From: Microcystis aeruginosa NIES-843
GTDB taxonomy: Bacteria > Cyanobacteriota > Cyanobacteriia > Cyanobacteriales > Microcystaceae
Direction: 5' to 3'
DNA: 32,000 bases
Assembly (NCBI RefSeq): GCF_000010625.1
Contig: NC_010296.1
Span: 3,960,001 to 3,992,000 of the forward strand
The notes beneath the pieces were generated by a model. That model was not told where the DNA came from. It was given only the letters and a program-made list of their open reading frames with translations, and searched no databases. A program made the position numbers and the translations under genes. Shown piece after piece: positions 6,403 through 28,399 of this stretch (its first letter is position 1; every line of letters starts with the position of its first letter).

Positions 6403-6481
6403 CAAAAAAGGGGGCGAAAAATTAACCATCAATCTTTAAAATAGAATTCGGAGAAAAATTTAGTCAATCAAGAGGGTAAAA

Positions 6482-10004: not shown

Positions 10005-10047
10005 CGAAACCCAACTCAATTATTAAAAAATGTTGGGTTTCACTATC

Positions 10048-10080: not shown

Positions 10081-10129
10081 TCATTGCTATCATTTAAATG
10101 GTTGAGAATACAATACCACTCTCAAACGG

Positions 10130-10790: not shown

Positions 10791-10791
10791 C

Positions 10792-12039: not shown

Positions 12040-14312
12040 GTCAGGAAGCGAAAATCTACCACAATCCCCATAATGAAAGGGTTGATAAATTACAGTTAAT
12101 GGTGAGAAATCGTCCCAGTGATCCTAATGCTAATCTTAACCATATTTCCTTCGCTTGGCCCTATTCTATCTTAGAAGATAAACAGGGAAAAGTCGTTGGG
12201 TTTTTAATGCCAGAAGTGGTGGGTTCAGAAACATTATTAAAGCTTTGTACGCCCATAATGAGAAGAAAATACAAGTTAGAAACTAATTGGTATTTTCTTC
12301 ATGTAGTAGCGCGGAATATAGCCGCTATTATCCAAGCAATTCACCTTAAAGGTTATGTTTTGGGAGACATCAAGCTAGAAAATATCTTAGTGAATAATCG
12401 GGCGTTGCCTACAATTATTGATACAGATTCATTTCAAGTATCAGATCCGGATAGTAGTAAAATATATCGGTGTTTAGTTGGTTCAGAAGGATTTACGCCG
12501 GCGGAATTAATCGGAGTGAATATAGCAGATGTAGATCAAACAGAAGTGCATGATCGCTTTCGATTAGGAGTTGTTATTTATTATCTACTATTTAGCGGGC
12601 CGCCGTTTCGGGGATTGTGGCAAGGAGGAGGGGATTCCTTGGAACAGTCGGAACTAATTCGACGGGGACTCTGGCCTTTTTCTGGGGATAAATTGCTTGT
12701 ACCTAGTAATACAACAATCCCATTAAATATTTTACATCCCGACTTACACGCCTTATTTTTGCGCTGTTTCAATGAGGGACATAAATTCCCCCACAGACGA
12801 CCGACGGCTAAGGAATGGCGTGGTACTTTGGAAGCTGCACTAAAAGAGGTTGTACGCTGTGGCAAAATTGATAATCATTACTACAGTCGCAGTTACGGAA
12901 AGTGTTATTGGTGTGAGCGATCTAGTAATTTAAATCTTGATATTTTTCCGGGTAAAAGTATCGCTACTGTGACACCTACACCGTCACCTAAAGTAGCGCT
13001 AACTCCACTGACAAACTTTACCGAAAACCTACCCAAGGGAATAACACTGGAGATGGTGAACTTACCAGCAGGTCAATTTCTCATGGGATCTCCTGACAGT
13101 GATACCGATGCTAGGGATTTTGAAAAGCCTCAACACCAAGTTCAAGTCAACAGTTTTGCGATCGGTAAATATCCAGTGACTCAGGCACAATATCAAGCGG
13201 TAATGGGAACCAATCCCTCTCATTTTTCAAATAATCCCCAAAATCCGGTAGAAAAGGTTAGTTGGGATGATGCTCAAGCTTTTTGTCAGAAATTGAGTCA
13301 AATAACCGGGAAAACCTATCGCCTACCGACGGAAGCGGAATGGGAGTATGCTTGTCGTGCGGGGACTACTACTCGCTTTTATTTCGGTGATGATGCTAAT
13401 CAGTTAGGAGATTACGCTTGGTATTACGGACATTCTCAGCAGACAACTCATCCTGTGGGACAGAAAAGTCCCAATGCTTGGGGACTGTATGATATGAGTG
13501 GCAATCTTTGGGAGTGGTGCGAGGACAATTGGCACGATAACTATATCGGAGCGCCAAAAGATGGCAGTGCTTGGCTGACAAATGATAATGATTATCAAAT
13601 AGTGCGGGGCGGTTCTTGGTACGACTATCCGTCTTTCTGCCGTTCCGCTTTCCGCGGCTACTACTTCCGCCGCGACTTCATCAACGACGTCGGTTTTCGG
13701 GTGGTGTGCGTCCCCAATGTGACATCTACACAGTTACCTATCGCTACTGTGACATCTACACCGTTACCTAAAGTAGCGCCTCCAGCGCCCTCTTCGCCAC
13801 CACCTCCCCCAGCAAAGCTAACTCTATTTAGCGAAAACCTACCCAAGGGAATAACACTGGAAATGGTGAGCTTACCAGCAGGTCAATTTCTCATGGGATC
13901 TTCTGACAGTGATCCCGATGCTTACCAGAACGAAAAGCCTCCACACCAAGTTCAAGTAAACAGTTTTGCGATTGGCAAATATCCAGTTACTCAGGCACAA
14001 TATCAAGCGGTAATGGGAACCAATCCCTCTCGGTTTAAAAATTGGTTTAAAAATAATCCCCAAAATCCAGTAGAAAATGTTAGCTGGAATGATGCTCAAG
14101 CCTTTTGTCAGAAATTGAGTCAAATAACAGGAAAAACCTATCGTCTCCCCACAGAAGCGGAATGGGAATATGCCTGTCGTGCGGGGACAACTACTCGCTA
14201 TTATTTTGGTGATGATGCTAATCAGTTAGGAGATTATGCTTGGTATTACGGAAATTCTCAAGATACAACTCATCCTGTGGGCCAGAAAAAGCCCAATGCT
14301 TGGGGACTCTAT
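12027..14312 (+). pseudogene. Ser/Thr protein kinase-FGE-FGE fusion, 5'-truncated and IS-interrupted (upstream fragment)
   Basis: Kinase catalytic-loop and DFG-like motifs are present (HLKGYVLGDIKLENILV, IIDTDSF), but the Gly-loop and the start of the N-lobe are missing. The apparent GTG start lies inside the IS inverted repeat. Two FGE-sulfatase modules follow (RLPTEAEWEYACRAG twice). The reading frame is broken at 14312 by an IS701-type element. Confidence 0.8.
13605..13709 (+). other. DGR variable-region-like cassette F1 (internal FGE domain)
   Basis: Adenine-free invariant blocks CGGGGCGGTTCTTGG / TGCCGTTCCGCT / GGTTTTCGGGTGGTGTGC are interspersed with NNC/NNT codons. It aligns with the other three cassettes. 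Confidence 0.6.
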
Positions 14313-15675
14313 TGGGACTTAAACAAATTTCAAGCCCAAACAAAGCCTAAACTGGCTTTGTAAGCGGCAAACACATCCCGATTCTCGGTCAGCCACTCAA
14401 AGAAACGGAAAGACATCGCTGTCCGAAAAGCTTCCAAGGCTTCCACAAAAGTGTTTAAAGGTCGATTCGCCCACTGCCTTTGCAATCCCCCAGTTAACTG
14501 ATGCCACAGGATAAATGTATAGGCACAAAACACCAGGATAAAATGACGAAGTAAGCTTCGTTTATCCCTGACTTGATATTCCCTTAACCCTAACCATCCT
14601 TTGGCTTCTCGGTAGAATACTTCCACCCAATTTCTTTCGGTGTAAGTCCTCACTATCCACGAAGCTGTTACTGTATCTGCCTCAACTACATTGGTGATGA
14701 AATAGTCCACCTCTGTGGCTTTTTCCATTGAACTTGCATTCATGACGATCGCCAAGTTCCTTTCTCCTTCTAGTTGAGATATTTTCGCTCTGAATACCGC
14801 TACCCAAACCGTTTTTTCTTTATCTAGATTTAGGGTGATTTTCTCCCAATCCTTTTCTGATAGGCTTTTTGCTAGTTGCTCAAGCTGGATTGTTTCTTCC
14901 ACACCCCCTTCTTTTTCAATAATTACTTTTCGATTTTTTGCCAATCCTCCTAAGTATTTTAGCTTTCTTTCTTCCAGGGCTTTGAGAAAATTTGTGTTGT
15001 TGCCATAACCAGCATCTATTAAGACGATTTTCGGTCGATAGCCTCTGGTTAAGCTCCGGTCAATTAAATCTATCGCTATCTCTGGTTTCTTCTTAAATTC
15101 TTTGTCTTCTTTCCCCTCGGCTAAGGAACTAGCCGGTTGATAAATTTCAATGTCTAGGGGGACACTTTTTTTGCCGTCGTAGAGATGAGTAGTGACGGCG
15201 ACTATTCCGTTGTCTGTCTTGCCAATTTCTCCCAGGTACTGCCTGCCAACTCCGGCGGTCAGATTGCCACTTTTTCGATGTCCTGAGTCATCGACAATCA
15301 GGGAAAATCCTCGGGGGATTTGCGTCTGGCGGCATTGGTTCATCACTTGCAACCGACATTCATTCACCTGACGGTCTGACCAGGGAGATTCGGTCAAAAA
15401 GTGATGTAATCGGTTATAAACTACTCCGACGGCATTATTGGCCATTTGAGTGAGGTTTTTCCTCTCACTTTCCCCTAATAATCCTCCTAAATATTGTCTG
15501 AAGCCGTTTTTTTGCGCTTCGTTTTTGAAGCAATTGTCAAACCGCCGACACCATCGGTCAAAGCATGGGGGCATCGCGGCTGGGGTTGTCTCTTTCATCG
15601 CTGATCTTTCAACGTAAAGTGCTTACTCTTTAACGATTATACTCGATTTGATCTTTATTTGGCGTTTAAGTCCCA
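14313..15675 (-). mobile_element. IS701-family insertion sequence (1363 bp)
   Basis: Terminal inverted repeats TGGGACTTAAAC (14313-14324) and GTTTAAGTCCCA (15664-15675). Flanked by a direct CTAT duplication (14309-14312 and 15676-15679). Confidence 0.85.
14330..15598 (-). CDS. IS701-family DDE transposase
   Basis: 422-aa ORF filling the element. The N-terminal pattern (FDRWCRRFDNCF...QYLGGLL...ERKNLTQMA...LHHFLTESPW) is recalled from IS701/IS4-related transposases. Confidence 0.8.
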   Translation of the reverse strand: MKETTPAAMPPCFDRWCRRFDNCFKNEAQKNGFRQYLGGLLGESERKNLTQMANNAVGVVYNRLHHFLTESPWSDRQVNECRLQVMNQCRQTQIPRGFSLIVDDSGHRKSGNLTAGVGRQYLGEIGKTDNGIVAVTTHLYDGKKSVPLDIEIYQPASSLAEGKEDKEFKKKPEIAIDLIDRSLTRGYRPKIVLIDAGYGNNTNFLKALEERKLKYLGGLAKNRKVIIEKEGGVEETIQLEQLAKSLSEKDWEKITLNLDKEKTVWVAVFRAKISQLEGERNLAIVMNASSMEKATEVDYFITNVVEADTVTASWIVRTYTERNWVEVFYREAKGWLGLREYQVRDKRSLLRHFILVFCAYTFILWHQLTGGLQRQWANRPLNTFVEALEAFRTAMSFRFFEWLTENRDVFAAYKASLGFVWA

Positions 15676-15679
15676 CTAT

Positions 15680-15916
15680 GACATGAGTGGCAATGTTTGG
15701 GAGTGGTGCGAAGACAATTGGCACGATAACTATATCGGAGCGCCAAAGGATGGCAGTGCTTGGCTGACAAATGATAATGATTGTCAAATAATGCGGGGCG
15801 GTTCTTGGTCCTTCAATCCATCTTACTGCCGTTCCGCTTACCGCGACGAATTCTACCGCGACGGCTACGACGACATCGGTTTTCGGGTGGTGTGCGGTGT
15901 CGGGAGGACTCTGTAA
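15680..15916 (+). pseudogene. Kinase-FGE-FGE fusion, downstream fragment after the IS701 insertion
   Basis: Removing 14313-15679 joins ...NAWGLY to [18 protein letters not shown]... in frame. The fragment ends [12 protein letters not shown]-stop. Confidence 0.85.
15794..15895 (+). other. DGR variable-region-like cassette F2 (C-terminal FGE domain of the kinase)
   Basis: Same adenine-free scaffold as F1, F3 and F4, but one codon shorter. Followed by GGTGTCGGGAGGACTCTGTAA. Confidence 0.6.
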
Positions 15917-16082
15917 CCCTTATTTTCTTTTTACCCTTTTTACCCTTTTTTACTTTTTCCTGCCCTTAGGCGGGTCGATTTTTTTTTGAGATTTTCTATA
16001 TCTCGTAGGGTGCGTGTTTGCGGCAATCAATTCGGTCAAAAAACTAAAATTAACAATCCGCCGTAACGCACCACCTTTATCA

Positions 16083-16177
16083 TTCGGGTTGCGTGTGTCT
16101 CCCCAGGACTTTAACCCTCTGTTCTTTTGCTCTTTTGCCCTTTGTCTCCCGCCTAGCGACGGGTCGATTTTTTTGAG
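16083..16177 (+). pseudogene. Decayed copy of an FGE gene 3' end plus its 3' flank
   Basis: TTCGGGTTGCGTGTGTCTCCCCAGGACTTTAACCC...GGGTCGATTTTTTTGAG parallels TTCGGGTGGTGTGCGGTGTCGGGAGGACTCTGTAACCC...GGGTCGATTTTTTTTTGAG at 15882-15990. Confidence 0.45.
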
Positions 16178-16207
16178 AAAATTGAGGTAGTGTTAATTTT
16201 TAACTAC

Positions 16208-16529
16208 TTAGGGTTTGCTGAATAAATCTAATACTAAATCCGGTTATTAAAGACTGATTATTTATCCCCCCTTTTGCCTTTTGCATGAGTGCCTTTTGCC
16301 TGTCTTGATATGTAGCCTATACTCAACGGATTTAGTATAAAAACCTTGTTGGATAAGACTTTTAGACCTTTGGGAAATCAAAAAGTACCGGATATGGGAG
16401 TGAGCGGGGGGAAAATTCAGGTACTTTTTCCCTGAAAATTAGGTAATTGACCAGATGAAAATCGGTGAAACCCCACACCTCACACCCCACACCCTGCCCC
16501 CAGGAAAAACTTTTTGCCGCAAACCCTAA
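16208..16529. mobile_element. MITE-like element with TTAGGGTTTGC termini
   Basis: TTAGGGTTTGC (16208-16218) is inverted at 16519-16529. The interior carries a 30-nt exact copy of 4279-4308 (16233-16262) and inverted ACTAAATCCG motifs. The terminus family is shared with 21552-21715. Confidence 0.5.
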
Positions 16530-16808
16530 TTATGATTGAGAAAAAGGGAGAATAATATAGCGAATGACTGTTCCTAGTAAAGCTGTTCCCAAGATGCCGA
16601 TTAACGTCCAAATCTGGCCTTTCTGAGAGCCTTTTAATTCTTTTGTATCTTCTTTTACTCCTTCAATATCTTTTTCTAAACTATCGACTTTTTCCTCTAA
16701 TCTCGCCTGTACTATTTTAATATCCATAACATCTTTTTGCAGATTATCCAACTTCTGATTAATTGAACCTAAAATTTCTTTGAGATCCTGTTCAATAGTA
16801 ACTGACAT
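16530..16808 (-). CDS. Small coiled-coil protein with a C-terminal transmembrane anchor (XhlA-like architecture)
   Basis: 92-aa ORF with heptad-like charged repeats (LDNLQKDVMDIKIVQARLEEKVDSLEKDIEGVKEDTKELK) followed by the hydrophobic IWTLIGILGTALLGTVIRYIIL. Assigned on architecture only. Confidence 0.45.
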   Translation of the reverse strand: MSVTIEQDLKEILGSINQKLDNLQKDVMDIKIVQARLEEKVDSLEKDIEGVKEDTKELKGSQKGQIWTLIGILGTALLGTVIRYIILPFSQS

Positions 16809-16834
16809 CTAATGATTCTCCTAATAATGATAGT

Positions 16835-18068
16835 TAAGCTAAAACGCACTTAAACCACCTAAAATAGAAATAGTAATTTTAGAAAAATCCTACTTATGCC
16901 AGCAAAAGATTTCCTAGACTTAGAAGAAAAGAAAAACTTACAAAAAGCTCTTAAAGAAGAAGAAAGAGCAGAGGTTAGGGAAAGAATTTTAATGTTTCTC
17001 TTGCTAAACGACGGAAAAACTCAACGAGAAATAGCTGACTTTATTGGCTGTTCACTCAAAACGGTCGCCCCTTGGTGTGTTCACGGTGATCCTAACAATT
17101 TAGAAAGTCTAGAAGATGGGAGAAAAAATGGAAATCATAAAAAAGCCACAGAGGAATATATTAATTTACTATTAAAAATAGTTGATGAAGACCCGAAGGA
17201 ATTTGGATATGAATTCGGGAGATGGACAGCGGCAAGATTAGCAGAGCATCTAGAAAAGGAAACAAGAATTAAACTGAGTGGCTCGCAAGTGAGAAGAATA
17301 TTGAGAAGAAAAAAGTATGTGTATATCTGGGCGAAATATAGTCTAGAAGATAAGCAAGACAAGAAATTAAGAAAAGCATTTAAAGAAAAATTAGATGAAT
17401 ATTTAAGGTTGGCTAAAGAAAAGCCAGAGTCAATCCAGGTATGGTTTTGGGACGGGGCTTTCAAGGTGGCGACGCAGGTTCGCCACACAGCCCCTCATGA
17501 GTGTGGATTTAGTTTGAGAGTAATAAGAAGGAGAGCTTGGACAAAAAAAGGAAAGCGAAAAAAAGTGAATGGACAAAGAAAAAGAGGAAGGGTGAATGTG
17601 ATGGGAGCCTTAAGATATAATGACAAAAAACGAGTCTGTTTTATGAGCAAAAAAGGAAATTCAGAAACTTTCCATGAACAATTAAAGAAACTTCATGAAG
17701 AGATTCGTCAAGAATGGATAAACTTGGGAAATCTGCCCGAAGATTTTCGAGAAAAAAGACCGAAAATTATCATCATATTAGACAATGCTAGTTATCACAA
17801 AAAGAAAGATGTTATTGAGCAGGTGGAAAAAGAGTTGCCCAATATTAGGCTAGAGTTTTTACCAGCTTATAGTCCAGATTACAACCTAATAGAATTAGTG
17901 TGGCATTCCGCTAAAGAGTACATAGCTAATCGAGAATTTGAAAATAAAGAAGAACTGGAAAAAGTAGTCAATCAGCTTTTAAATGAAGGGGGATTGATTA
18001 TTAAATGGAGTAGAAAACTTAAAAATAAGGGTAATGCTGTCAATGTAACTTAAATGCGTAAAAGCTTA
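16835..18068 (+). mobile_element. IS630-family insertion sequence (boundaries approximate)
   Basis: Imperfect inverted ends TAAGCTAAAACGCACTTAAA and TTAAATGCGTAAAAGCTTA, about 15 of 20 matched, both at TA dinucleotides. They enclose the transposase ORF. Confidence 0.7.
16896..18053 (+). CDS. IS630-family (Tc1/mariner-like) DDE transposase carrying a 15-aa in-frame insertion
   Basis: 385-aa ORF with an HTH N-terminus and motifs ILDNASYHKK and LPAYSPDYNLIELVW. WFWD-[GAFKVATQVRHTAPH]-ECGFSL interrupts the usual DE.GF motif. Confidence 0.85.
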   Translation: MPAKDFLDLEEKKNLQKALKEEERAEVRERILMFLLLNDGKTQREIADFIGCSLKTVAPWCVHGDPNNLESLEDGRKNGNHKKATEEYINLLLKIVDEDPKEFGYEFGRWTAARLAEHLEKETRIKLSGSQVRRILRRKKYVYIWAKYSLEDKQDKKLRKAFKEKLDEYLRLAKEKPESIQVWFWDGAFKVATQVRHTAPHECGFSLRVIRRRAWTKKGKRKKVNGQRKRGRVNVMGALRYNDKKRVCFMSKKGNSETFHEQLKKLHEEIRQEWINLGNLPEDFREKRPKIIIILDNASYHKKKDVIEQVEKELPNIRLEFLPAYSPDYNLIELVWHSAKEYIANREFENKEELEKVVNQLLNEGGLIIKWSRKLKNKGNAVNVT

Positions 18069-18198
18069 TCAGCATTGTTGTCTATCTTATCTTAAGTGTT
18101 TGCCCAACCGAAGCGCCTCATTTTCCCTTGCTGCCTTCCCTCATTGTTGCCCTCCCCCTCCCATTATCTCCACTAATTTATGAGCCGATAATTCCTGA

Positions 18199-19167
18199 TT
18201 AAGCCAATCCTTTCTCAGCCAACCATTGAGGATTATATAAACGAGATTGATAACGGGACCCACCATCACAAAGAACAGTAACGATGGTGTGGCCCGGTCC
18301 CATTTGTTTAGCCAAAGCCACGGCAGCACCGACATTAATACCCACAGAACCCCCCATAAATAAACCATCTTTTTGTAATAGTTGATAAACAACTTTAATG
18401 GCAGTGGGATCATCAATTTGAATGGCATCATCTATGGGTGCGCCTTCCATATTAGCCGTAATACGACTATTACCAATCCCTTCGGTAATTGAACTACCTT
18501 CCAGGGTAATTGTCCCGGTTTTCACATAACTATATAAACCGCTACCCATCGGATCCGCCACCAGGCAGCGCACCTGCGGATTTTGGTCTTTTAAAAACAT
18601 CGCCACCCCCGCGTAGGTTCCCCCGGTTCCTGTGGCAGCCACCCAAGCATCAATTTTACCGTCGGTTTGTTCCCAGATTTCCCGGCCGGTGGTTTCGTAG
18701 TGAGCGCGACGATTAGCCAGATTATCGAATTGATTGGCCCAGATAGCATTTTCCATCTCACTGGCCAATCTCCCCGATAATTTAACGTAATTATTGGCAT
18801 CTCGGTAGGGAACGGCGGGAACAGTACGCACTTCTGCGCCAAGGGTTCTCAATAGGTCGATTTTCTCTTGGGATTGGGTATCGGGAATGATAATCAGGCA
18901 TTTATAACCTTTAGCATTGCAGATATGGGCCAAACCGATGCCAGTATTGCCGGCGGTTCCTTCGACAACGGTTCCCCCCGGTTGGAGAGTACCGGCTTTT
19001 TCCGCTTCTTGAATAATATATAAAGCGGCCCGATCCTTGACCGAACCACCGGGGTTAAGAAATTCGGCCTTACCGAGAATCTCGCAGCCGGTTTCCTCGC
19101 TAAAACTATTGAGACGAATTAGGGGAGTATTACCCACCGCATCGACGAAACCATGTTTAATATCCAT
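18199..19167 (-). CDS. PLP-dependent cysteine synthase / CBS-like family enzyme
   Basis: 322-aa ORF. NPGGSVKDRAALYII carries the PLP lysine, with TAGNTGIGLA and ATGTGGTYAGV loops. No CBS-pair domain is present. Confidence 0.8.
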   Translation of the reverse strand: MDIKHGFVDAVGNTPLIRLNSFSEETGCEILGKAEFLNPGGSVKDRAALYIIQEAEKAGTLQPGGTVVEGTAGNTGIGLAHICNAKGYKCLIIIPDTQSQEKIDLLRTLGAEVRTVPAVPYRDANNYVKLSGRLASEMENAIWANQFDNLANRRAHYETTGREIWEQTDGKIDAWVAATGTGGTYAGVAMFLKDQNPQVRCLVADPMGSGLYSYVKTGTITLEGSSITEGIGNSRITANMEGAPIDDAIQIDDPTAIKVVYQLLQKDGLFMGGSVGINVGAAVALAKQMGPGHTIVTVLCDGGSRYQSRLYNPQWLAEKGLA

Positions 19168-19191
19168 AATCTGTTATTTTTCGTGCTGTTC

Positions 19192-19395
19192 CTAGGCTGA
19201 GACGATTTTTTGTACCAAGGGATGACGCACCACATCGGCCCGCGATAGGTAAGAAAAAGCGATCCCTTCTACTGATTTTAGGATTTTTTGAGCGGCAATT
19301 AACCCCGATTCTTGTTGTTGCGGTAAATCGGTTTGGGTGACATCTCCAGTTACTACCATGCGCGAACCGAATCCCAAGGGAGTTAAGACCATCAA
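19192..19395 (-). pseudogene. phoH: phoH 3' remnant (C-terminal ~65 aa only)
   Basis: LTPLGFGSRMVVTGDVTQTDLP...SGL...VEGIAFSYLSRADVVRHPLVQKIVSA matches the PhoH C-terminus. Upstream in frame there is no Walker A or DEAQN region, and a stop lies about 20 codons up. Confidence 0.6.
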
Positions 19396-19558
19396 TGCGA
19401 TCGCACTTTCTCCACTGGGGAATTGAATCGTTGGCCAAATTCTACCACTTTAGCAAAATTGTTGTCTTAGCTGGAAATATTGATTAAATTGGAAGTTTTT
19501 TAGCTGTGATTCGTTACCTAACCTAATATAGTGGTGGCATTCTGTAAGGAGTCCCACC

Positions 19559-20479
19559 GTGACTAACAATTCCATCGAGCCTTTAACTATTGGAAATACC
19601 ATTAATACTGCCTTCCGTCTTTATCGTGATCGCTTCCCAACTTATGTATTCTTTGCTGTCCGCGCCTGTTTGTGGTCGCTTCTTCCCTTAGTTTTGCAAT
19701 TAATTCTCAGTCAATTACTTTATCAAACAATTACCCCCGAAGAAGGCAGCGATATCGGTTTACGTTTATTTCTTTTCCCAGTACAAATTTTCTCGGCCGC
19801 TAAGTATCTTTTCAATAGTGCGGTTATCTCACGATTAGCTTTTCAAGACATCATTTATCAGCCGGAAACTGCCGGACAAGCGGAAAAAAAAGTTAAGCCG
19901 AAAATGTGGCGCTTGTGGTGGATGCAGGTTTTGCTTGGTTTGTTGGGAGCGGCAATAATCTTGGCGATAACGCTGTCTCTGGCGCTAGTAAGTTTGATCC
20001 CCATCCTTGGTGTATTGCTTATTTTACTGGCTTCTTTCTGTCTTCCTGTTTTCTTCCTTTGGTTATCTGCTCGCATTTGCATTGCCGAATTGCCCTTAGT
20101 AATTGAAGATAATTTAGGCAGTTGGCAAGCAATCAAGAGAGGTTGGCATTTAACTAAAAACTCGGCTTGGAGAATTGTGGGAGTGATATTTATTGCCAGT
20201 TTATTAATTATTCCAGTTTATATTCTGTCAGTAGCTTTGGCTTCAATTCCCTTTTGGGTTAATTTTTCCTCTTTTTATAGTAGTTTGGAATCGGTAGAGG
20301 ACTGGCAAACGCTCACGGAAAATCCTCTTTTTTTACAACAAATGGCGATGTTTTCCTATGGTCTGACTACTATTTTCTTACTTCTGAGTACTTTATTAGT
20401 TCCTTTTTGGCAATCTCTCAAAAGTGTGATCTATAATCATCTTTTAGACCAGAAAAAAAATGATGGGGGAGAATACTAA
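19559..20479 (+). CDS. Multi-pass membrane protein of unknown function
   Basis: 306-aa ORF with a GTG start and several long hydrophobic segments. No catalytic motif was recognised. Confidence 0.5.
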   Translation: MTNNSIEPLTIGNTINTAFRLYRDRFPTYVFFAVRACLWSLLPLVLQLILSQLLYQTITPEEGSDIGLRLFLFPVQIFSAAKYLFNSAVISRLAFQDIIYQPETAGQAEKKVKPKMWRLWWMQVLLGLLGAAIILAITLSLALVSLIPILGVLLILLASFCLPVFFLWLSARICIAELPLVIEDNLGSWQAIKRGWHLTKNSAWRIVGVIFIASLLIIPVYILSVALASIPFWVNFSSFYSSLESVEDWQTLTENPLFLQQMAMFSYGLTTIFLLLSTLLVPFWQSLKSVIYNHLLDQKKNDGGEY

Positions 20480-20751
20480 TAACTGAGCCGCTGTTGATGT
20501 AAACTAAGACGCATTTAAACCGCTTATTCTTAGATTAGTTGAACTTCCCCCAATCCCTTTACTGTTGCCTCTTGTCTCGTCTCAACAAGCAATTTATCCT
20601 AAATCCGTTGAGTAACCCACAGAAAACGGGTTTCTCGGAGAAACCCGTTTTCTACTCATGATAATTCTCTCAATCCTTTTATAGTACATATATAGTACAT
20701 CTGCTCAAAAAAAATCGAAAAAGGGTAAAAAGAGAAAAAAGAGAAAAAGGG

Positions 20752-21549
20752 TTACAAAGTCCTCCCAGCACCGCACACCACCCGAAAACCGCAGGTGTTG
20801 AGGCTGACGGGGCGGAGGTCGTAGCTGCGGCAAGCGGAACGGCAGCCATCTGGATCGCTGTACCAAGAACCGCCCCGCAGAGCTTTATCTGCCTGATTTT
20901 GCTGTTTTTTGCTCTTTTTTATCTCCTCATAATTTTCGCGCCAATCATCTTGACACCACTCCCAGACATTTCCGGGCATATCATATAAACCAAAGTCGTT
21001 GGCGTAGAATTGCCCAACAGGGGTGGTTTTTTGGAGATTGCCATTATAGTTGGCTAAATCTGGGGTAAGAATTTCCCCAAAGTGATAGGGGGGGTAGGTT
21101 TCTCCTTTGTGGAGATTTAAGGGTTTGGTTTGCGCTCGACAAGCGTACTCCCACTCAGCTTCCGTTGGGAGCCTATATTTTCTTTTACTTAATTTAGAGA
21201 GCCTTTGGCAAAATTCGACGGCATCTAACCAAGATACATTTTCAACGGGGTTTGTGCTGCCTTTAAACTCCGATGGCTCTGGTTTTAAATCTTGCTCTAC
21301 TTTTAAATCTTCTCTTTGGGCAATATATAACCATTGAGCTTGGGTAATGGGATAAATACCCATCAAGAAGTTTTTCAGGGTGACGTTGTGTTGCGGCTTT
21401 TCACTTGTATTACCACTTTCTTGTTCTGAAGAACCCATTGTAAAGGTTCCCGATGGTATTTTGACTAATTCTATTTCTAGGTCATCGGTGAGTTTTTCTC
21501 TATAGATTAAAAGACGTTTTTGGGTCTTTTGGATGATTATTGTAGGCAT
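20752..21549 (-). CDS. Stand-alone FGE-sulfatase (SUMF1/C-type-lectin fold) domain protein
   Basis: 265-aa ORF with VKIPSGTFTMGS, RLPTEAEWEYACRA, GLYDMPGNVWEWCQD, GGSWYS and GFRVVCGAGRTL-stop. Confidence 0.85.
   Translation of the reverse strand: MPTIIIQKTQKRLLIYREKLTDDLEIELVKIPSGTFTMGSSEQESGNTSEKPQHNVTLKNFLMGIYPITQAQWLYIAQREDLKVEQDLKPEPSEFKGSTNPVENVSWLDAVEFCQRLSKLSKRKYRLPTEAEWEYACRAQTKPLNLHKGETYPPYHFGEILTPDLANYNGNLQKTTPVGQFYANDFGLYDMPGNVWEWCQDDWRENYEEIKKSKKQQNQADKALRGGSWYSDPDGCRSACRSYDLRPVSLNTCGFRVVCGAGRTL
20773..20877 (-). other. DGR variable-region-like cassette F3
   Basis: Same adenine-free scaffold with NNC codons. Followed by GGTGCTGGGAGGACTTTGTAA. Confidence 0.6.
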
Positions 21550-21551
21550 AA

Positions 21552-21715
21552 GTAGGGTTGGCTGAATAAATGTGAAATATAGACGAGGTAAGGGTTTTAG
21601 TGTCCTGTATCGGCCCGCGTCCCGTAGGGGCGAAGCATTCGGGTAATAACCTATCGGTGAAACCGTAGATTTTCTATCCGAATGCTTCGCCCGTACTTTT
21701 TCAGCAAGCCCTAAG
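21552..21715. mobile_element. MITE-like element with TAGGGYTKGCTGAA termini and a long internal hairpin
   Basis: TAGGGTTGGCTGAA on the left is inverted on the right as TTCAGCAAGCCCTA. The internal 15-bp stem is GGGCGAAGCATTCGG (21628-21642) pairing with CCGAATGCTTCGCCC (21678-21692). Confidence 0.5.
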
Positions 21716-21753
21716 TAAGTAATTATAATTAAATTAAAAATTGATTTTATACT

Positions 21754-22239
21754 CTATCCTTCACCAGCTAATTTTAACACAGAAGTACGAGTAGTGGCAT
21801 CTAAGCGAAACTTCAGCAATTCTAGTTGATTAAGAATTGGCTCAATACGGTGTAGATAACCATTTTGTTTAGCCTTTAATAATATTCCCATTGTACCAGT
21901 GAGTTTTATTCCTAATAAATTTGCATATCGTCTCGCCAAGCCATCATCAAGTAAAGCGAGAAAATCGGTAATTTCTATTGCTAAAGCTAATACTTCTTTT
22001 TCTCCTTTTCCTAAATCAGTGACAAGGGGTAAAAGAGAAACTGATTTTGCTTGTTGAATAATTATCCAACTTAAGGAGGTTATATCAGGTAAAGAGATTC
22101 CAGAAGCTTTTCCAACGGCTAACTCTTGAGCTACTGAAAAAGGAATAATTATCTGTCCGTAAAAGTTCGGTAGTAAGTCAAGTAAGTTAGTCTGATAGAG
22201 GTATTGAATCGGTGATGTATCGGCAATGACGTTAGGCAT
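21754..22239 (-). CDS. DUF3368-type PIN-like putative toxin
   Basis: 161-aa ORF. IADTSPIQYL...GKGEKEVLALA...LLDDGLARRYA matches the PIN-like pattern recalled for DUF3368. It overlaps the upstream antitoxin-like gene by 8 nt. Confidence 0.65.
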   Translation of the reverse strand: MPNVIADTSPIQYLYQTNLLDLLPNFYGQIIIPFSVAQELAVGKASGISLPDITSLSWIIIQQAKSVSLLPLVTDLGKGEKEVLALAIEITDFLALLDDGLARRYANLLGIKLTGTMGILLKAKQNGYLHRIEPILNQLELLKFRLDATTRTSVLKLAGEG

Positions 22240-22483
22240 TAGCCAGATCCTCGATTAATTCTGCTTCCTTGAGTCGGAAGGTATCAACTCCATAGTCTGC
22301 AAGTTTAGAGAGAAAAACAACTCGCGGAATACCTGCTAAGTTGGCAGCAGTGCCAGAGGAAAGTTTTCCCAATTCATAAAGTTTAATGGCAGCAAGAAGA
22401 GAGATTTCCTGTGCTAGTTGTTCTGGAGTGAGATGTAAAGCGAGAGCGGTTTCATCGGGTAGGGAAAGAGTGATTTGGTACAT
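22232..22483 (-). CDS. UPF0175-family putative antitoxin
   Basis: 83-aa ORF. AAIKLYELGKLSSGTAANLAGIPRVVFLSKLADYGV is typical of UPF0175 partners of DUF3368 proteins. Confidence 0.65.
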   Translation of the reverse strand: MYQITLSLPDETALALHLTPEQLAQEISLLAAIKLYELGKLSSGTAANLAGIPRVVFLSKLADYGVDTFRLKEAELIEDLANA

Positions 22484-22491
22484 GATGAATA

Positions 22492-22718
22492 CTAGGATTA
22501 ATTGATTGTAGGGTTGATTCTAGGGTTGATAGGGTTGATTGTAGGGTTGATAGGTTTGATTCTAGGTTTGATTGTAGGGTTGATTCTAGGTTTGATTGTA
22601 GGGTTGATTCTAGGTTTGATTGTAGGGTTGATTCTAGGTTTGATTGTAGGGTTGATAGGTTTGATTGTAGGGTTGATTCTAGGTTTGATTGTAGGGTTGA
22701 TTCATGAATCAACCCTAC
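22492..22718. repeat. Tandem array of 17 units of 12 or 9 nt, ending in a 28-nt perfect palindrome
   Basis: Alternating GATTGTAGGGTT and GATTCTAGGTTT units with three 9-nt GATAGG(G/T)TT variants run from 22504 to 22698. The array ends in GTAGGGTTGATTCATGAATCAACCCTAC (22691-22718). Confidence 0.9.
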
Positions 22719-22854
22719 CTTGATAAGGGGAAAACCTAAAACCCGTCTTCAATTTAATTATAACCAGCTACTGATCAGCCAACCTCATATAGTACATTTG
22801 TTCAAAAAATCGAAAAAGAGAAAAAGGGTAAAAAGGAAAAAAAGAGAAAAAGGG

Positions 22855-25740
22855 TTACAAAGTCCTCCCAGCACCGCACACCACCCGAAAACCGTCGATG
22901 TCGATGTCGTCGCGGCGGAGGCTGATGTTGCGGTAAGCGGAACGGCAGAGATCCGGATTGCTGTACCAAGAACCGCCCCGCCGAGCTTTATATGCCTGAT
23001 TTTGCTGTTTTTTGCTCTTTTTTTGCCAAGGACTACCATCCCTAGGTGCGCCTTGATAATTATTCCAGAAGTCATCCTGACACGACTCCCAGACATTTCC
23101 GTGCATATCATACAAACCAAAACCATTGGGGGGAAATTGCCCCACGGGGGTGGTTTCCTCGCGATATTCTCCTGCTGGTTCCCTAGCAAAGCGTTGCGTA
23201 CCATTGTAGTTAGCTAAATTTGAGGTGAGGGTTGCTCCGAAGTGGAAGGGAGTGGTGGTTCCAGCACGACAAGCATACTCCCATTCCGCCTCACTGGGTA
23301 GCCGATACTGTTTCTTGGTCATTTTAGAGAGCCTTTGGCAAAATTCTACGGCATCTAACCAAGATACATTTTCAACGGGGTTTGTGCTGCCTTTAAACCG
23401 CGATGGCTCTGGGTTTAAATCTCGCTCTACTTTTAAATCTTCCCTTTGGGCAATATATAACCATTGAGCTTGGGTAATCGGAGTTTGACTTAGGTAAAAC
23501 GGGGCGATTTTTACTAAATGTCTGGGGGATTCTGGTTGGAACCAATCCCTATTGTATTTTTTCACTAGCCGCGCTATTTCCTCCGCTTCGGTTCCCATCC
23601 AAAACTCCCCCGAAGGAATATAGAGCATTTTTAAGCTGGGGGGATTTTCTTTAAAGTAGAAGGCTCTCACGGGTTCTTTAGCGGTAATTTGTCCCGTCTC
23701 ATCCACAAAAACGGTTTCAGACTTGAACAGGGTTAGGTTAAATTTCTCGGTGATGATTTCTTCTTCTGTGTTATCCAAGACTTCCCTAAACTGGACTGGG
23801 ATTGTCTCGGCGGTTATTTCTTCGCTTGCCAAAATTTTAAGCTGCTCAGGGGTTAAACGAAGGCGCTGATACAGTTCCCCATCTTCTACGCTGAAATCCT
23901 TAAGTCTATCCTTGAGCAGTTGAAACAATATTTCCTCTCCTCCCGTAAGCTCTTTTACCTTAGCTATGGTTACGGTTTTATATTTCCTCAGCCACTTTTC
24001 CTCAACCGGTGGGGGTGGAGGTGAGTCAACCATAGATTGCAGCTTTTGGCTAATTTCTTGGTACTTTGCTTCCCCTAGCTTTTGGAAAACCTTAGCAGAT
24101 ACCTTGGCAAAGGCGCGAACTAGATTAGCTGCTTCTTTGCCGAGGAGAACTTGGGGATTGGTAAGAATAAGACCAAAAAAGGTGGTGGTACTCAGGTTGA
24201 GTTTTTGGGCGATGTATTCCGAGAGGACAAAAATTACCTCTAAGGCGCGGCTATTCCCTAGTTCAGTGAGCAGAAGCTCTCTGTCCTCATCATCCAATTC
24301 AAAATCTAGGCTGTTGGGGGGAGTATGAAAGTTAAATTTACCTCCTTTGTCCCACTTCACTGGTTCCCCTCCTAGATAGACTTTGAGAAAACCGCTAAGG
24401 ATGACTTCTGCTATGTTTAGGGGGTTAGAGGCGCTTAAAAGTTTGCTTTGGATAAGACGGATGATGGGAAGATTTACCGGGGCTGCGGCTAATTTTTTCA
24501 GTAACTCCCAAGCTAGAGGTGAGGCGGTACTGGCGAATAGTTCTAGAGCTTGCTTCCTAGACATCTCCGGAGAAATAGTTGCGGGTATTTCTCTGTTTTG
24601 GGGAGATTTTTCTAGTAGTACCCCCGCACAGGTGGCGTTGCTGTCACCACTGAGAACAAGCGCCCAAGCTTTTAAGGATGAAGGGGTTAGGGAGATGGTG
24701 GGTAGGGGAAAGTAGGTTTTTTGGATTGTTTCTCTGAGAATATGTTGATTTTCCTCTTCCTTCTCAATTTGTAGCAGCAGGGGGATAGAGGTAAATCTCC
24801 AGTTTTGTGAAGGTTTCCGGGGGGTTTGGTTGACTAGGGAGACGAACCAACCTCGACTAAGGGCGGTTCTTTCCCACATTGCTTCCGGGAAGGGAGAAAG
24901 CAGGGTGACGATTTGGTGTTTTCCCCAGTCCTGAAGAGCTTGGTTATAGCGTCCTTGATACCAGTCTGGGGAAGTACAATCACTGTAGAAGAGGATAAGT
25001 CTTTCGCCGCGAGGATGGATGAGATCTTTTGGGTGAATTGAGCAAGTATCGTTAGAGTAGGTACGGATGGCTAAATTTTGCCTGTCTTCGTCCCATCCTA
25101 TGCGGTAGAGTTTGACATCCCGAAAGGCCCCGATTTGTTCTAGCCAATCGCGGATTTCCCCGGCCATTTCTTTCCAAAAGACCATGGAGGCCCATTCTTC
25201 AATCAGTAAAACTACCTCTAGGGAACGGACTTTTTTGGCTTGGTAAACGGGTATTAGGGCTAAACTGCCATCTTTCTTGCCGATGCTATACTCGGCCGAT
25301 TTCTGTACGGTGCTGTTTAGGTTTATTTGTCTTTGGGTGGCTGAGTCTATCTTTTGGATGAGGGGACGCACTGCCCGCCCTAATTTTAGGGTTTCTCGCC
25401 AGAATTTGGCACTGGGGAGGCTAATGGGTAGGGTATCTGCGCCTATCTTCTCCGGCTGTTTTTGTGCTTCTGTCTCGCGTATTAAGGGAACTTCATCGGA
25501 TGGGGCCGCTGGCTCTTGGGTTTCGTTTTTACTCTCCTGGGGGGGGTTTTTAGCGGGAGGGGTTTCTTCCTTTTCTTCCCTAGGCTCTGGAGGGGGTTGG
25601 GGTTTTCCTTCCTCTTCTTGGGTGAGAACATACCACCATAAACTATCAGCTATCTGGTAACTGTCTAGGTCCCATCCCCTGCCCTTGACAAAGGTGATAA
25701 ATTTATCAATCAGTTCTGGTGTGGGAAGGGTTTGGGTCAT
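22855..25740 (-). CDS. SAV_2336-N-like / vWA-like / FGE-sulfatase multidomain protein (vWA partner of the MoxR ATPase)
   Basis: 961-aa ORF. The N-terminus has YQIADSLWWYVL (ADALWLA-like), then a Pro/Glu-rich linker and a vWA-like region with a degenerate MIDAS (VVLLIEEWASM...ILFYSDCTSPDW). The C-terminal FGE domain has RLPSEAEWEYACRAG and GFRVVCGAGRTL. The ATG overlaps the AAA gene stop (ATGA, 25737-25740). Confidence 0.8.
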   Translation of the reverse strand: MTQTLPTPELIDKFITFVKGRGWDLDSYQIADSLWWYVLTQEEEGKPQPPPEPREEKEETPPAKNPPQESKNETQEPAAPSDEVPLIRETEAQKQPEKIGADTLPISLPSAKFWRETLKLGRAVRPLIQKIDSATQRQINLNSTVQKSAEYSIGKKDGSLALIPVYQAKKVRSLEVVLLIEEWASMVFWKEMAGEIRDWLEQIGAFRDVKLYRIGWDEDRQNLAIRTYSNDTCSIHPKDLIHPRGERLILFYSDCTSPDWYQGRYNQALQDWGKHQIVTLLSPFPEAMWERTALSRGWFVSLVNQTPRKPSQNWRFTSIPLLLQIEKEEENQHILRETIQKTYFPLPTISLTPSSLKAWALVLSGDSNATCAGVLLEKSPQNREIPATISPEMSRKQALELFASTASPLAWELLKKLAAAPVNLPIIRLIQSKLLSASNPLNIAEVILSGFLKVYLGGEPVKWDKGGKFNFHTPPNSLDFELDDEDRELLLTELGNSRALEVIFVLSEYIAQKLNLSTTTFFGLILTNPQVLLGKEAANLVRAFAKVSAKVFQKLGEAKYQEISQKLQSMVDSPPPPPVEEKWLRKYKTVTIAKVKELTGGEEILFQLLKDRLKDFSVEDGELYQRLRLTPEQLKILASEEITAETIPVQFREVLDNTEEEIITEKFNLTLFKSETVFVDETGQITAKEPVRAFYFKENPPSLKMLYIPSGEFWMGTEAEEIARLVKKYNRDWFQPESPRHLVKIAPFYLSQTPITQAQWLYIAQREDLKVERDLNPEPSRFKGSTNPVENVSWLDAVEFCQRLSKMTKKQYRLPSEAEWEYACRAGTTTPFHFGATLTSNLANYNGTQRFAREPAGEYREETTPVGQFPPNGFGLYDMHGNVWESCQDDFWNNYQGAPRDGSPWQKKSKKQQNQAYKARRGGSWYSNPDLCRSAYRNISLRRDDIDIDGFRVVCGAGRTL
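22876..22980 (-). other. DGR variable-region-like cassette F4
   Basis: Same adenine-free scaffold with NNC codons. Followed by GGTGCTGGGAGGACTTTGTAA. Confidence 0.6.
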
Positions 25741-26696
25741 GTATTGCCTGTGTCGGTGAGATAGGTAAATAGTAGGTCGGTAAGGGACTTTAATTCTGCA
25801 CCCGTGGGTTTATTTTCGCCCATGCTCATAAAGACGGCGTTTAAAAGCTGGTCCGTTGCTAGTTCCCCTTTTTCTCGTTTTTTAACATATTCTGCGATCG
25901 CGTCTTCTATTTTTTTACTTTCTGGACTGGCCTCTTTATAATCAAAATGGCTTTTTACTATCTTTTTTAGTTCCTCTGGGGTGGGGTCGGGAATTTCTAA
26001 GAGCAGACATCTACGTTTAAAGGGTAGGGGAAAATCCCTCTCGCCGTTGCTCGTCATAATCACTATGGGGAACTGTTGGCAGCTTACCTTACCTTGGGGG
26101 ATGGATTCCCATTCACCGTCATGGGTTTGTACTGGTATTGGTTGGTTTTCGGTATCTTTAGCGAGTCGGGAAAGTTCGGTGATTTCAAATCTTCCCTCTT
26201 CAAAAAGGTTTAAGAGGTCGTTGGGTAAGTCGATGTCACTTTTATCTATCTCATCGATAAGCAGTACCCGGGGATAATTTCTCGGACAGAGGGCTGTCCC
26301 CAAGGGACCCAAGCGGATATACTGCCCTATGTCTTTTTTTTCTTCTAATTGGTAATCTTGCAAACGTGCGATCGCGTCGTAGTAGTATAATCCCTCTTGT
26401 AGGGTGGTGCGGGTATTAATTGGCCAGACTAATACTTCTTTTAAGTCTAATTCGTAGGCGATTGCGTAGGCTAGGGAGGTTTTCCCTGTACCCGGTTTCC
26501 CTGTGACTAAAATAGGCCGGCGTAGGTGAATGGCTGCGTTTACGGTTTCGATGGTTTTAGGGTTAACTATGAGTTGTTTTCCCCGCTCCTCGGATTTGTT
26601 GGTGGCGAAGCTTCGCCAAGGTGGGATTTCTGGCCAAGTAATCTTATCCCTTGAGCGTTTTTGATGATTGCCTTGAAAGATTTTCCATGAACTCAT
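25737..26696 (-). CDS. MoxR-like (AAA_5-type) AAA+ ATPase
   Basis: 319-aa ORF with Walker A LVTGKPGTGKTSLA and Walker B RVLLIDEIDKSDIDLPNDLLNLFEEG. It begins 6 nt after the upstream gene and overlaps the downstream gene. Confidence 0.85.
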   Translation of the reverse strand: MSSWKIFQGNHQKRSRDKITWPEIPPWRSFATNKSEERGKQLIVNPKTIETVNAAIHLRRPILVTGKPGTGKTSLAYAIAYELDLKEVLVWPINTRTTLQEGLYYYDAIARLQDYQLEEKKDIGQYIRLGPLGTALCPRNYPRVLLIDEIDKSDIDLPNDLLNLFEEGRFEITELSRLAKDTENQPIPVQTHDGEWESIPQGKVSCQQFPIVIMTSNGERDFPLPFKRRCLLLEIPDPTPEELKKIVKSHFDYKEASPESKKIEDAIAEYVKKREKGELATDQLLNAVFMSMGENKPTGAELKSLTDLLFTYLTDTGNT

Positions 26697-26702
26697 AGTT
26701 AG

Positions 26703-28399
26703 TTAACCTAGGTGCTGAGATGTTAAGTAGTGGAAGGGGGGCATCCGATTAGGGTCTTCTAAAAAGCATAATAGATGATGTCCTAGATGTTCTGGTTCAT
26801 CTTCTAAATTATCTGGTGATTGTCGCCTCACCTCTTGAACTCTTGTGGACAATTGATTGATTTGAATACCCTGTAAGAGTGTATTAATTTCTGTTCTGTG
26901 AATTGCTTCCTGAGCATGACAGCGCGACGGGAGCATCTCACTTACGCGATAAGTAATTATACTTAGCCTAAAAGCCACTCTTAATCGTGTCTTGGAACGA
27001 AATAGAGGCTTTTAAAGACTGCGTACATGGAGAATTAAAACAAGAATTACCCTCGAAAAGCCTATTTTTCCACTAAGTATTTATGCTCATTGCAAAGGTG
27101 AGATGCTCCCCAGCGCGACCCAACGGCTAAAGGTATGCCATATTTTAAGCTTCTTTTAAAGAATTGCTCTAAATCCTCTTGAGTTGAAGCGCAAAGATTG
27201 CTCCATAGAGTTGTTTCTTGGCACAAATAGGACTCGCTGTTATTAACTGTTTGTGTATCTATAGAATTTGTCGTTAATCTCTCCCATCTACTTTTCCAAT
27301 TTTTATAAACTGGTTGATTCCGATATCTATTCTCCAATCTCATAAGAGAGCGAACATTAACAAAATATACTCTCTTAAGTTGAGTTAGGCTATCAAAGTA
27401 ATTGTATTCCCAAGATTCAAAGTTAGTATATAGTAGCTTACCATCGGTGAAAAATTCAATATTTAAGTTTGCACCTCCTCGCTCATGACAATCTTCAATA
27501 ATTTTTGTTAAAATGTTCGTTATATCTTTTTGAGTATAAACATCTTTGCTAACGCTACTATCTACAGGAAGAGGTATATAATTATTTCCTTGACTTTGAG
27601 ATGTATTTAACTGTAGAAAACACGCAGCAAATTTATATTCAGGGGAAGTATTTGCTTGACTTTTACTCTCCTCTATTTTGATAATTAGATAGTTGTTAAT
27701 ATTTTCTCGATTGTTAGGTTTTGGATCAATTTCTGTTATCTCTGCTGTCCAAGCATTGTAATCTGTGTCAGTAATATTTAATAGTTTCTTTAACTCCTGT
27801 ATTGTTTGTTCAATGTATGAGCGATTGTAGCTATTAATTCTGCTATCTTGAGTAAGTCTAAAAAGTATTCTTAATAAATCTTTATCATCTGGAAGATTTA
27901 TGATTTTATCGATGATTTCTTCAAAATTAGCATTGTCATTATCTAGCAAGTACGACTTTATGATCAGATTCAGTTCTGCTTGTTGTTGTCCAGACAATTT
28001 ATTTTTAAGTTCTGTAAATATATCAATTTTTGTCTTGCTTTTAACAAAACTATTTTCTACAGAGATACCCTTGTTATCGATAGCATTCCAATGCTCAATT
28101 AATGTAATAAAATTGGTCTTTTGAACTTTTATAGGCGTTTTCATAGCTTCTGTGAGAGCTTTAGAAATCAAGGGAAATAATTTTTTATTTGCTTCTTTCC
28201 TAAGATTTTCTGAATTTAAGTAATTTTTCTCTGCTATCTCATCATAAGTTAAATCTTGACGAAATCCATTTACTAAGATTTTTTGTATATCAGATAATCC
28301 CTTATTATCTACTTTTATAACTAACTGCATTACAATGCCCAAAAAATCTGATTCATTCAGATCACTTGGTTTTTTAGACTTAGATTTTCTATCTCCCAT
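26703..28399 (-). pseudogene. HTH + VMAP-C-like (vWA-MoxR-associated) protein gene disrupted by a MITE
   Basis: ORFs 27062-28399 and 26703-26978 join in frame when 26929-27111 and one 8-bp duplication are removed, giving about 501 aa. The N-terminus has a LuxR/sigma-r4-like HTH (LSDIQKILVNGFRQDLTYDEIAEK). The C-terminal half has NIEFFTDGKLLYTNFESWE...VYFVNVRSLMRLENRY...WKSRWERL, recalled as the VMAP-C pattern. Confidence 0.7.
26929..27110 (-). mobile_element. 182-bp MITE identical to the left arm of the IS at 10792
   Basis: 13-bp terminal inverted repeats (GGGAGCATCTCAC and GTGAGATGCTCCC). Flanked by direct AGCGCGAC copies (26921-26928 and 27112-27119). Its reverse complement matches 10792-10973 with no mismatch found by eye. 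Confidence 0.85.

Follow-up and report, generated by a model that had tools for sequence, protein, structure and literature searches.

The locus and its four cassettes

The stretch analysed here (referred to as the window) comprises 32,000 nucleotides of Microcystis aeruginosa NIES-843 (contig NC_010296.1, positions 3,960,001 to 3,992,000) and contains four short cassettes, F1 to F4, which, judging from their sequences, are very probably variable regions (VRs) of a Microcystis diversity-generating retroelement (DGR), i.e., remote targets served in trans. According to Pfam and NCBIfam, the cassettes are found in two modules. The first consists of a vWA protein, a PP2C phosphatase and a kinase with two formylglycine-generating enzyme (FGE)-sulfatase domains; the second consists of a VMAP-M9 protein, a MoxR-like AAA ATPase and a 961-aa protein, with a 265-aa FGE-only protein next to them. 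The four cassettes are 102-105 nt long, share adenine-free blocks and are located as follows:

13605..13709, plus strand: VR F1, internal; closes the first FGE/C-type lectin (CLec) domain of the kinase gene
15794..15895, plus strand: VR F2, terminal; second FGE domain of the same kinase gene, in a 77-aa stub open reading frame (ORF) at 15683-15916
20773..20877, minus strand: VR F3, terminal; 265-aa FGE-only protein
22876..22980, minus strand: VR F4, terminal; 961-aa protein

An earlier note on this DNA, made from the sequence alone, had proposed these four cassettes, and their coordinates and strands were all verified. The cassettes align in the same codon register throughout, with F2 one codon short. 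As that note had described, the invariant blocks contain no adenine and the variable codons are NNC or NNT, with GAA in F2 as the sole exception. Two of the blocks, GGTTTTCGGGTGGTGTGC and CGGGGCGGTTCTTGG, each occur exactly four times in the window, compared with 0.02 and 0.00 copies, respectively, expected from shuffled sequences, and the Pfam FGE-sulfatase matches stop at each cassette. The description of all four as C-terminal needs correction for F1, which closes the earlier of two FGE domains, short of the protein's C-terminus. F2 is terminal but is now inside the 77-aa stub that was left when an IS701-family element split the second FGE domain.

Template repeat, reverse transcriptase and Avd in other Microcystis genomes

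The positions expected to be adenine in the template were derived from the four cassettes, and the predicted first half of the template, CTTGGNACAACAATCCAAATAACTGCCGTTCC, was used as a query against a collection of species-representative genomes. Only three contigs matched, and all of them were from Microcystis. The predicted template is thus present in other Microcystis genomes and, as the earlier note had expected, it is adjoined there by both a DGR reverse transcriptase (RT) and Avd. The full template repeat (TR), as found in locus L009, reads CGGGGCGGTTCTTGG TAC AAC AAT CCA AAT AAC TGCCGTTCCGCT TAC CGC (AAC)4 CGC CGC GAC (AAC)5 GGTTTTCGGGTGGTGTGC and continues 3' with GGTGCTGGGA and then TTACTC. 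The prediction missed only a few codons, giving AAC at two that are TAC in the template, at one CGC and at one GAC.

The TR is non-coding and lies directly 3' of a reverse transcriptase gene of the RVT_1 family, and upstream of it the order of the locus is cis FGE target, Avd, RT. The cis FGE targets of the template loci are fusions with STAND NTPase, CHAT or caspase domains. The RT is 352-360 aa in length (Pfam RVT_1), contains the motifs IGNLTSQ and YVDD, and adjoins the TR on its 5' side in L008, L015, L018 and L022; IGxxxSQ is a signature of DGR reverse transcriptases. It shares 72-77% identity with RTs named for Nostoc, Fischerella, Calothrix and Nodularia, and its 90% identity cluster includes 179 members from Microcystis. 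The Avd protein matches NCBIfam NF033474 (DivGenRetAVD) with 131 bits, against a cutoff of 80, and is also matched by Pfam bAvd. In L015/L018, the Avd-RT locus is intact and its template is exactly the 105-nt form. A metagenome scan with the second half of the 105-nt template recovered three contigs, none from samples carrying the window alleles; likewise, none of the RT variants P0001, P0124 and P0137, when looked up, came from metagenome samples carrying the F3 and F4 alleles of the window.

The templates of Microcystis fall into at least three alleles. T1 is 105 nt long; T2 and T3 both measure 108 nt, T2 having one CGC more and T3 being marked by GATAGGCGC, ATC and TTTCGCG. The junction variant at the 3' end differs with the template allele (GGTGCTGGGATTACT, GTATTCGGGAGAACT or GGTGCCGGGAGTACT). 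Template alleles were located at the following sites:

L009, 6871-6975
L007, 198-305
L008, 1799-1906
L022, 4108-4215

Within one genome, cassettes can bear the markers of different template alleles. In L009 (Microcystis sp. M015S2), the cis VR is T2b-like while the template is T1, and the RT gene (5649-6846) contains an insertion of approximately 120 nt that duplicates residues 183-188 and leaves ORFs of 191 and 166 aa; from its sequence, this RT has probably been inactivated.

Adenine-specific differences between cassettes and template

Changes were counted inside the 105-nt cassette against the T1-type template, the sequence of which was taken from conspecific genomes and not from the window's own assembly; T1 is the best-fitting allele for all four cassettes.

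F1: 20 of 30 adenine sites changed; 0 of 75 non-adenine sites changed
F2: 17 of 30 adenine sites changed; one non-adenine change (C to A, giving GAA); one CGC of the CGC-CGC pair deleted
F3: 18 of 30 adenine sites changed; one non-adenine change (CGC to CCC)
F4: 14 of 30 adenine sites changed; 0 of 75 non-adenine sites changed

When pooled, 69 of the 120 adenine sites but only 2 of the 297 non-adenine sites are changed, in addition to the codon deletion in F2; the restriction to adenines that the earlier note had anticipated is thus borne out. In other words, 69 of the 71 substitutions inside the cassettes fall on template adenines, where the threshold applied in a survey of cyanobacterial DGRs is >80% (PMC7517822). 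With the short flanks included, the contrast between adenine and non-adenine changes gives a Fisher p of 6e-35. The pattern extends beyond the window, since 11 distinct 105-nt VRs from different strains are changed at 193 of 330 adenine sites and at 9 of 825 non-adenine sites. Because the variable codons of the template are AAC or AAT, it is the first and second codon positions that change, and stop codons never arise: only 2 of the 70 adenine changes counted over the cassettes and their short template-homologous flanks lie elsewhere, with CCA to CCG as a synonymous exception.

Template homology begins 2-3 nt 5' of the cassette and extends 10 nt past it, spanning approximately 13603-13710 for F1, 20763-20880 for F3 and 22866-22983 for F4. 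The few differences just upstream of the cassettes, which had also been attributed to template adenines, do not fit that explanation, because TAT/TGT and GAT/TAT lie outside the template and GTG/ATG and CTG/CGG fall on a template C and a template T.

The 3' module and the junction

Beyond the cassette, F2, F3 and F4 remain alike for approximately 60 nt, through the stop codon, in the form of GGTGCTGGGAGGACTYTGTAA followed by a pyrimidine-rich tract. The same module follows every terminal VR, cis or remote, in the 15 loci compared. In the window it is arranged as follows:

15896..15990, plus strand: 3' module of F2; GGTGTCGGGA (template-homologous, two mismatches), GGACTCTGTAA (IMH-like, including the stop codon; IMH, initiation of mutagenic homing) and, distally, a pyrimidine-rich tract, a hairpin CCTGCCC-TTAG-GCGGG and TCGATTTTTTTTT
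20690..20772, minus strand: 3' module of F3; GGTGCTGGGA (template-homologous), GGACTTTGTAA and a pyrimidine-rich tract, lacking the GC hairpin
22795..22875, minus strand: 3' module of F4; GGTGCTGGGA, GGACTTTGTAA and a pyrimidine-rich tract

The targets and the templates part at a defined junction (marked here by a slash). The targets, i.e., F2, F3, F4 and every terminal VR in the 15 loci, read GGGA/GGACT, whereas the templates read GGGA/TTACT, GGGA/GAACT or GGGA/GTACT. On the basis of these sequences, the difference may represent the IMH/IMH* element that confers directionality.

None of the four 3' flanks folded more stably than shuffled versions of itself (z = -0.7 to +1.4); no hairpin was found in the flanks of F3 and F4, and that of F2 is weak, terminator-like and approximately 75 nt downstream. 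As the flanks fold no better than shuffled sequences, a cruciform of the kind known from phage BPP-1 is not claimed. An Rfam scan at gathering thresholds over the window and two RT loci gave no match.

Across L001-L024, every terminal target gene, of whatever kind, is followed past its stop codon by a conserved non-coding module, GTAACCCTTTTTCTCTTTTTT..CCCTTTTTACCC. Many copies continue with CCCGCC-N4/5-GGCGGG and then TCGATTTTTT, approximately 75 nt downstream, which is terminator-like. In F3, F4 and their orthologues the hairpin part has been lost, and the cassette is hypervariable all the same.

Comparison among strains

Six syntenic loci from other strains (L001-L006) were retrieved for comparison; the cysteine-synthase-like protein of the window is identical to that on other Microcystis contigs (e.g., HE973734.1). 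The flanks of the F3 gene are 97-98% identical to those of its orthologues, while the cassettes share only 70-88% identity; for the F4 gene, the corresponding values are 93-95% and 76-88%. In both genes it is thus the cassettes, rather than the flanks, that take up the substitutions; the equal density in flanking codons that the earlier note had named as a refuting outcome was not seen. Moreover, the F3 orthologue of L003 carries the T3 markers GATAGGCGC and TTTCGCG and shows no non-adenine mismatch to T3 but four to T1, indicating that template information reaches this remote locus.

These results bear on an explanation that involves no retroelement, in which the cassettes are merely paralogous FGE C-termini shaped by diversifying selection and gene conversion. 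The blocks do encode conserved structural residues (RGGSW, CRSA, GFRVVC), and the same positions are kept in formylglycine-generating enzymes that are not DGR targets. Nevertheless, the scaffold retains the same synonymous sites in unrelated genes, the variable codons are only of the NNC/NNT type, a non-coding copy with adenine at every variable position lies beside an RT and Avd, and markers of a TR allele were transferred. We consider this explanation extremely improbable; the template beside RT and Avd and the adenine-confined mismatches effectively refute an origin by selection and gene conversion only.

Several cassettes in other strains depart from this simple picture. On a metagenome contig, L012 (cassettes at 4087-4191 and 6195-6302), the F4 gene is 100% identical to that of the window, and the F3 orthologue has a very different allele, with 10 non-adenine mismatches to any template seen and the junction GTATTCGGGAGGACT; this mixture of alleles suggests recombination or a fourth template type, as far as the sequences allow. 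Cassette lengths range from 96 to 114 nt across strains (L002, L004, L005 and L006 among them) and often differ from the adjoining template by whole codons: in L015 a cis VR of 108 nt (2446-2553) accompanies a TR of 105 nt (4186-4290), and in L024 a T1-type VR of 105 nt (754-858) lies beside a T3 TR of 108 nt (2491-2598). Slippage of the RT on (AAC)n, template turnover or a second DGR are possible causes of these length differences. In L006, the F3-orthologue cassette (2826-2935) is 110 nt long; as this is not a multiple of three and the protein is overlong (282 aa instead of approximately 265), the gene is likely a frameshifted target.

The kinase gene and its internal cassette

The first module is present in the window in an interrupted form:

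7870-8535, plus strand: vWA protein (Pfam); kept as an upstream partner of the kinase-FGE gene in all strains compared
8549-9316, plus strand: PP2C phosphatase (Pfam); likewise a kept upstream partner in all strains compared
12027-14363 and onward: kinase ORF with two FGE-sulfatase domains (Pfam/NCBIfam)
12047..14312, plus strand: Ser/Thr kinase, FGE domain 1 and the first part of FGE domain 2 (Pfam Pkinase; synteny with L001-L006; comparison with the L005 kinase)
14313..15675, minus strand: IS701-family element; 12-nt terminal inverted repeats TGGGACTTAAAC / GTTTAAGTCCCA; transposase of 422 aa, 14330-15598
15676..15916, plus strand: distal part of FGE domain 2 with F2 and the stop codon; the stub matches positions 181-254 of the FGE-sulfatase profile

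The IS701-family element is flanked by a 4-bp target duplication, CTAT (14309-14312 and 15676-15679), and in silico excision of 14313-15679 restores an open frame of 840 aa that ends in F2. Given this split and the restored frame, F1 and F2 are read as parts of one ancestral protein, in which F1 is internal. The 5' end of the kinase gene is also affected, with approximately the first 37 codons lost.

The internal position of F1 raises the question of whether this cassette alone is a passive copy of a once-terminal VR that became internal by tandem duplication of the FGE domain and is not itself homed into. Template homology of F1 ends at GTGTGCG, without the GGTGCTGGGAGGACTYTGTAA and pyrimidine tract of every terminal VR in the 15 loci, which would fit a passive duplicate. 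Upstream, F1 and F2 share approximately 95% identity over some 110 nt, which points to a recent duplication of the domain, and internal FGE domains of L002 (12727-12822) and L005 (13436-13546) are degenerate, with 11-12 non-adenine mismatches. However, F1 shows 0 of 75 non-adenine changes although its upstream flank is approximately 5% different from that of F2. Furthermore, two other internal cassettes of L002 (13504-13617 and 11917-12021) keep the scaffold, with zero and two non-adenine mismatches, respectively, and differ from F1 at adenine sites, and in Thiohalocapsa, CLec domains that carry VRs in tandem are reported to be targeted by DGRs (PMC10907252). For F1, we regard passive copying and homing as evenly balanced.

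A single trans-acting DGR might write to targets that break the usual rules, namely F1 and the L002 internal cassettes, which lack the IMH-like module, and the length-shifted cassettes, which range from 102 to 114 nt against templates of 105 and 108 nt (RT slippage on (AAC)n being an example of a cause), with T1, T2 and T3 mixed among cis and remote targets. This would mean that homing needs only the GC-rich GGTTTTCGGGTGGTGTGCG end and that loop length is varied too. We think this unlikely.

A 1.66-kb insertion at 10388-12046, relative to the six syntenic strains, stands in place of the promoter region and the approximately 37 kinase codons; an ORF with a PIN domain (10311-10790) and part of an ISKra4-family transposase (11127-11984) are carried on it. 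The slot between the PP2C and kinase genes (9379-10387) holds a toxin-antitoxin cassette that varies among strains: MNT/HepT in the window, L003 and L004; BrnT/BrnA with a FitA-like gene in L002; and NTP_transf_2, BrnA and a FitA-like gene in L001, L005 and L006.

The MoxR/VMAP module

The two remaining targets and their partners are all on the minus strand:

20752..21549, minus strand: FGE-only (CLec-only) target, 265 aa; Pfam FGE-sulfatase E = 2e-53
22855..25740, minus strand: 961-aa target; SAV_2336-type N-terminus and C-terminal FGE domain
25737..26696, minus strand: MoxR-like AAA ATPase (Pfam); overlaps the start of the 961-aa target gene
27062..28399, minus strand: vWA-MoxR-associated protein (VMAP-M9 and VMAP-C; Pfam)

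The C-terminal half of the 265-aa target matches Treponema denticola TvpA (2y3c) with E = 1e-17. The MoxR and VMAP partners of the 961-aa protein are present; a vWA domain in the protein itself was not detected by Pfam or NCBIfam. The VMAP-M9 ORF is 445 aa in the window and in L011 and 500-503 aa in other strains, which may reflect a shorter N-terminus or a different start call.

Active or fossil targets

The interpretation of F1 to F4 as DGR targets, as put forward in the earlier note, is supported by the conspecific template beside RT and Avd, by the adenine-specific differences and by the confinement of the divergence to the cassettes. Several observations weigh against it. In agreement with the earlier note, Pfam, tblastn and pattern searches found no RT, Avd, AAC-rich repeat or template repeat in the window, nor was a degenerate template copy found there. 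The gene that carries F1 and F2 is broken in the window strain, and F1 diverges right after GTGTGC, with a linker (GTCCCCAATGTGACATC...) in place of the 3' module. Fresh homing would have erased the non-adenine change in F3 and that in F2, together with the F2 codon deletion. Finally, exact matches to the F3 and F4 proteins and the IS701 transposase came only from short metagenome contigs (JGI 3300015613 and 3300016469; ENA ERZ27292640 and ERZ27272027), and the F3 and F4 alleles were unchanged in three independent metagenome samples, so there is no sign here of ongoing turnover.

Such observations would be accommodated if the cassettes were fossils, written by a past DGR in a strain that now lacks a working RT and TR, with VRs that are frozen and slowly decaying. 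The identity of the F3 and F4 alleles across the three samples, the twofold disruption of the F1/F2 gene and the non-adenine changes in F2 (C to A, the codon deletion and two in GGTGCTGGGA) and F3 (G to C) are all in keeping with this alternative. So are the split RT of M015S2 (191 and 166 aa), the presence of members of 191, 225 and 260 aa in the RT cluster, one of them from NIES-2520, and the myRT paper, which lists only group II intron RTs for NIES-843 (PMC8934634). Conversely, F1 and F4 each show 0 of 75 non-adenine changes, an intact Avd-RT-TR locus with an exactly matching 105-nt TR exists in Microcystis (L015/L018), and no other strain in the comparison shares the window alleles, which speaks for rewriting after the lineages separated. 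We therefore consider fossil targets somewhat unlikely, and favour targets served in trans by a DGR whose TR and RT are presumably held by the window's own genome.

Proposed mechanism

Error-prone reverse transcription opposite adenines, followed by replacement of the target by the cDNA, is established DGR biology, with the BPP-1 element as the prototype (for summaries, see PMC7517822 and PMC7159879). For the window, we propose that a TR located after a cis target, Avd and RT elsewhere in the genome would be transcribed, that the TR RNA would be reverse-transcribed with misincorporation opposite adenines, and that the cDNA would replace the VR at the end of the FGE/CLec domain, with the direction set by the target and template forms of the junction given above. 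Approximately 17 residues of the ligand-binding face would be randomised in this way, 17 of the 35 template codons having adenine at position 1 or 2. Three sensor proteins would thus be diversified, namely the kinase of the vWA-PP2C-kinase module, the CLec-only protein and the 961-aa protein of the MoxR/VMAP module; the target proteins are presumably sensors of antigens or ligands.

Relation to known systems

The features of the BPP-1 DGR (Mtd/Brt/Avd), i.e., adenine-specific TR-to-VR mutagenesis, AAC-rich codons, a C-terminal VR on the CLec face and Avd, are likewise seen here, together with a VR/TR junction difference that may be analogous to IMH/IMH*. Unlike in BPP-1, the TR is 3' of the RT, there are several remote targets, and no GC hairpin directly follows the junction in F3 and F4. 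Beyond phage, Treponema denticola TvpA is comparable as well, given its sequence match to the 265-aa target noted above.

Among the nearest published systems are cyanobacterial DGRs with remote CLec targets. A survey of 52 cyanobacterial genomes with DGRs defined remote variable proteins (PMC7517822), and for M. aeruginosa NIES-2549 it lists an RT (AKE65309.1, Table S1), a variable protein (AKE65307.1) and, in Table S3, seven CLec paralogues, of which three are kinase-CLec remote targets (Vallota-Eastman et al. 2020). The window shares with NIES-2549 the genus and the type of element, as well as kinase-CLec, CLec-only and long-N-terminus CLec targets; as in the DGRs of that survey, the remote targets lie far from the RT, the VRs are 3'-terminal and transposases are near (PMC7517822). 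There is no difference in kind from NIES-2549; the window strain has alleles of its own and a kinase with two tandem FGE domains that is broken by insertion sequence (IS) elements.

The targets also resemble those of Thiohalocapsa PB-PSB1 and of related DGRs in multicellular bacteria, which are putative sensors of conflict systems, with MoxR directly upstream of a long-N-terminus target and a short CLec-only target nearby (Dore et al. 2024, PMC10907252). The likeness extends to CLec domains that carry VRs in tandem, to remote loci diversified in trans and to the erosion of DGR parts by IS elements or miniature inverted-repeat transposable elements (PMC10907252). However, that system belongs to another phylum and RT clade, and diversification was observed there at the level of reads, whereas here it is seen from strain comparison only.

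Similarly, the combination of VMAP-M9, MoxR and an FGE protein at 22855-28399 is like the VMAP/MoxR-vWA ternary conflict systems with FGS domains (Kaur, Burroughs, Iyer and Aravind 2020, PMC7159879). That work reports a DGR association for approximately 80% of the VMAP ternary systems of cyanobacteria, in which the TR may lie nearby or at another genomic site (PMC7159879). Unlike in these systems, the 961-aa protein has no vWA match and carries a SAV_2336-type N-terminus instead. The vWA, PP2C and kinase trio described in the same work belongs to an actinobacterial context and not to that of the window.

For cyanobacteria, Microcystis included, the literature thus already describes DGRs that have multiple remote targets of the kinase-CLec and MoxR-associated CLec kinds, and this knowledge is unchanged by our results. 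The analysis does indicate that the target sequence alone suffices to recognise DGR targets and to predict their template nearly base for base, and it marks three sensor proteins in two signalling or conflict modules of a bloom-forming cyanobacterium as hypervariable.

Other mobile elements in the window

Two further mobile elements were observed outside the target genes. At 16837-18065, an IS630/DDE_3-type transposase (16896-18053) is found where other strains run directly from an XhlA-like region to the PALP gene. At 30063-31866, a TnpB-like ORF (OrfB_IS605 and a Cas12f1-like TNB domain, 30063-30824) lies beside a serine resolvase ORF (31273-31866), which together look like an IS607-type element at the end of the window.

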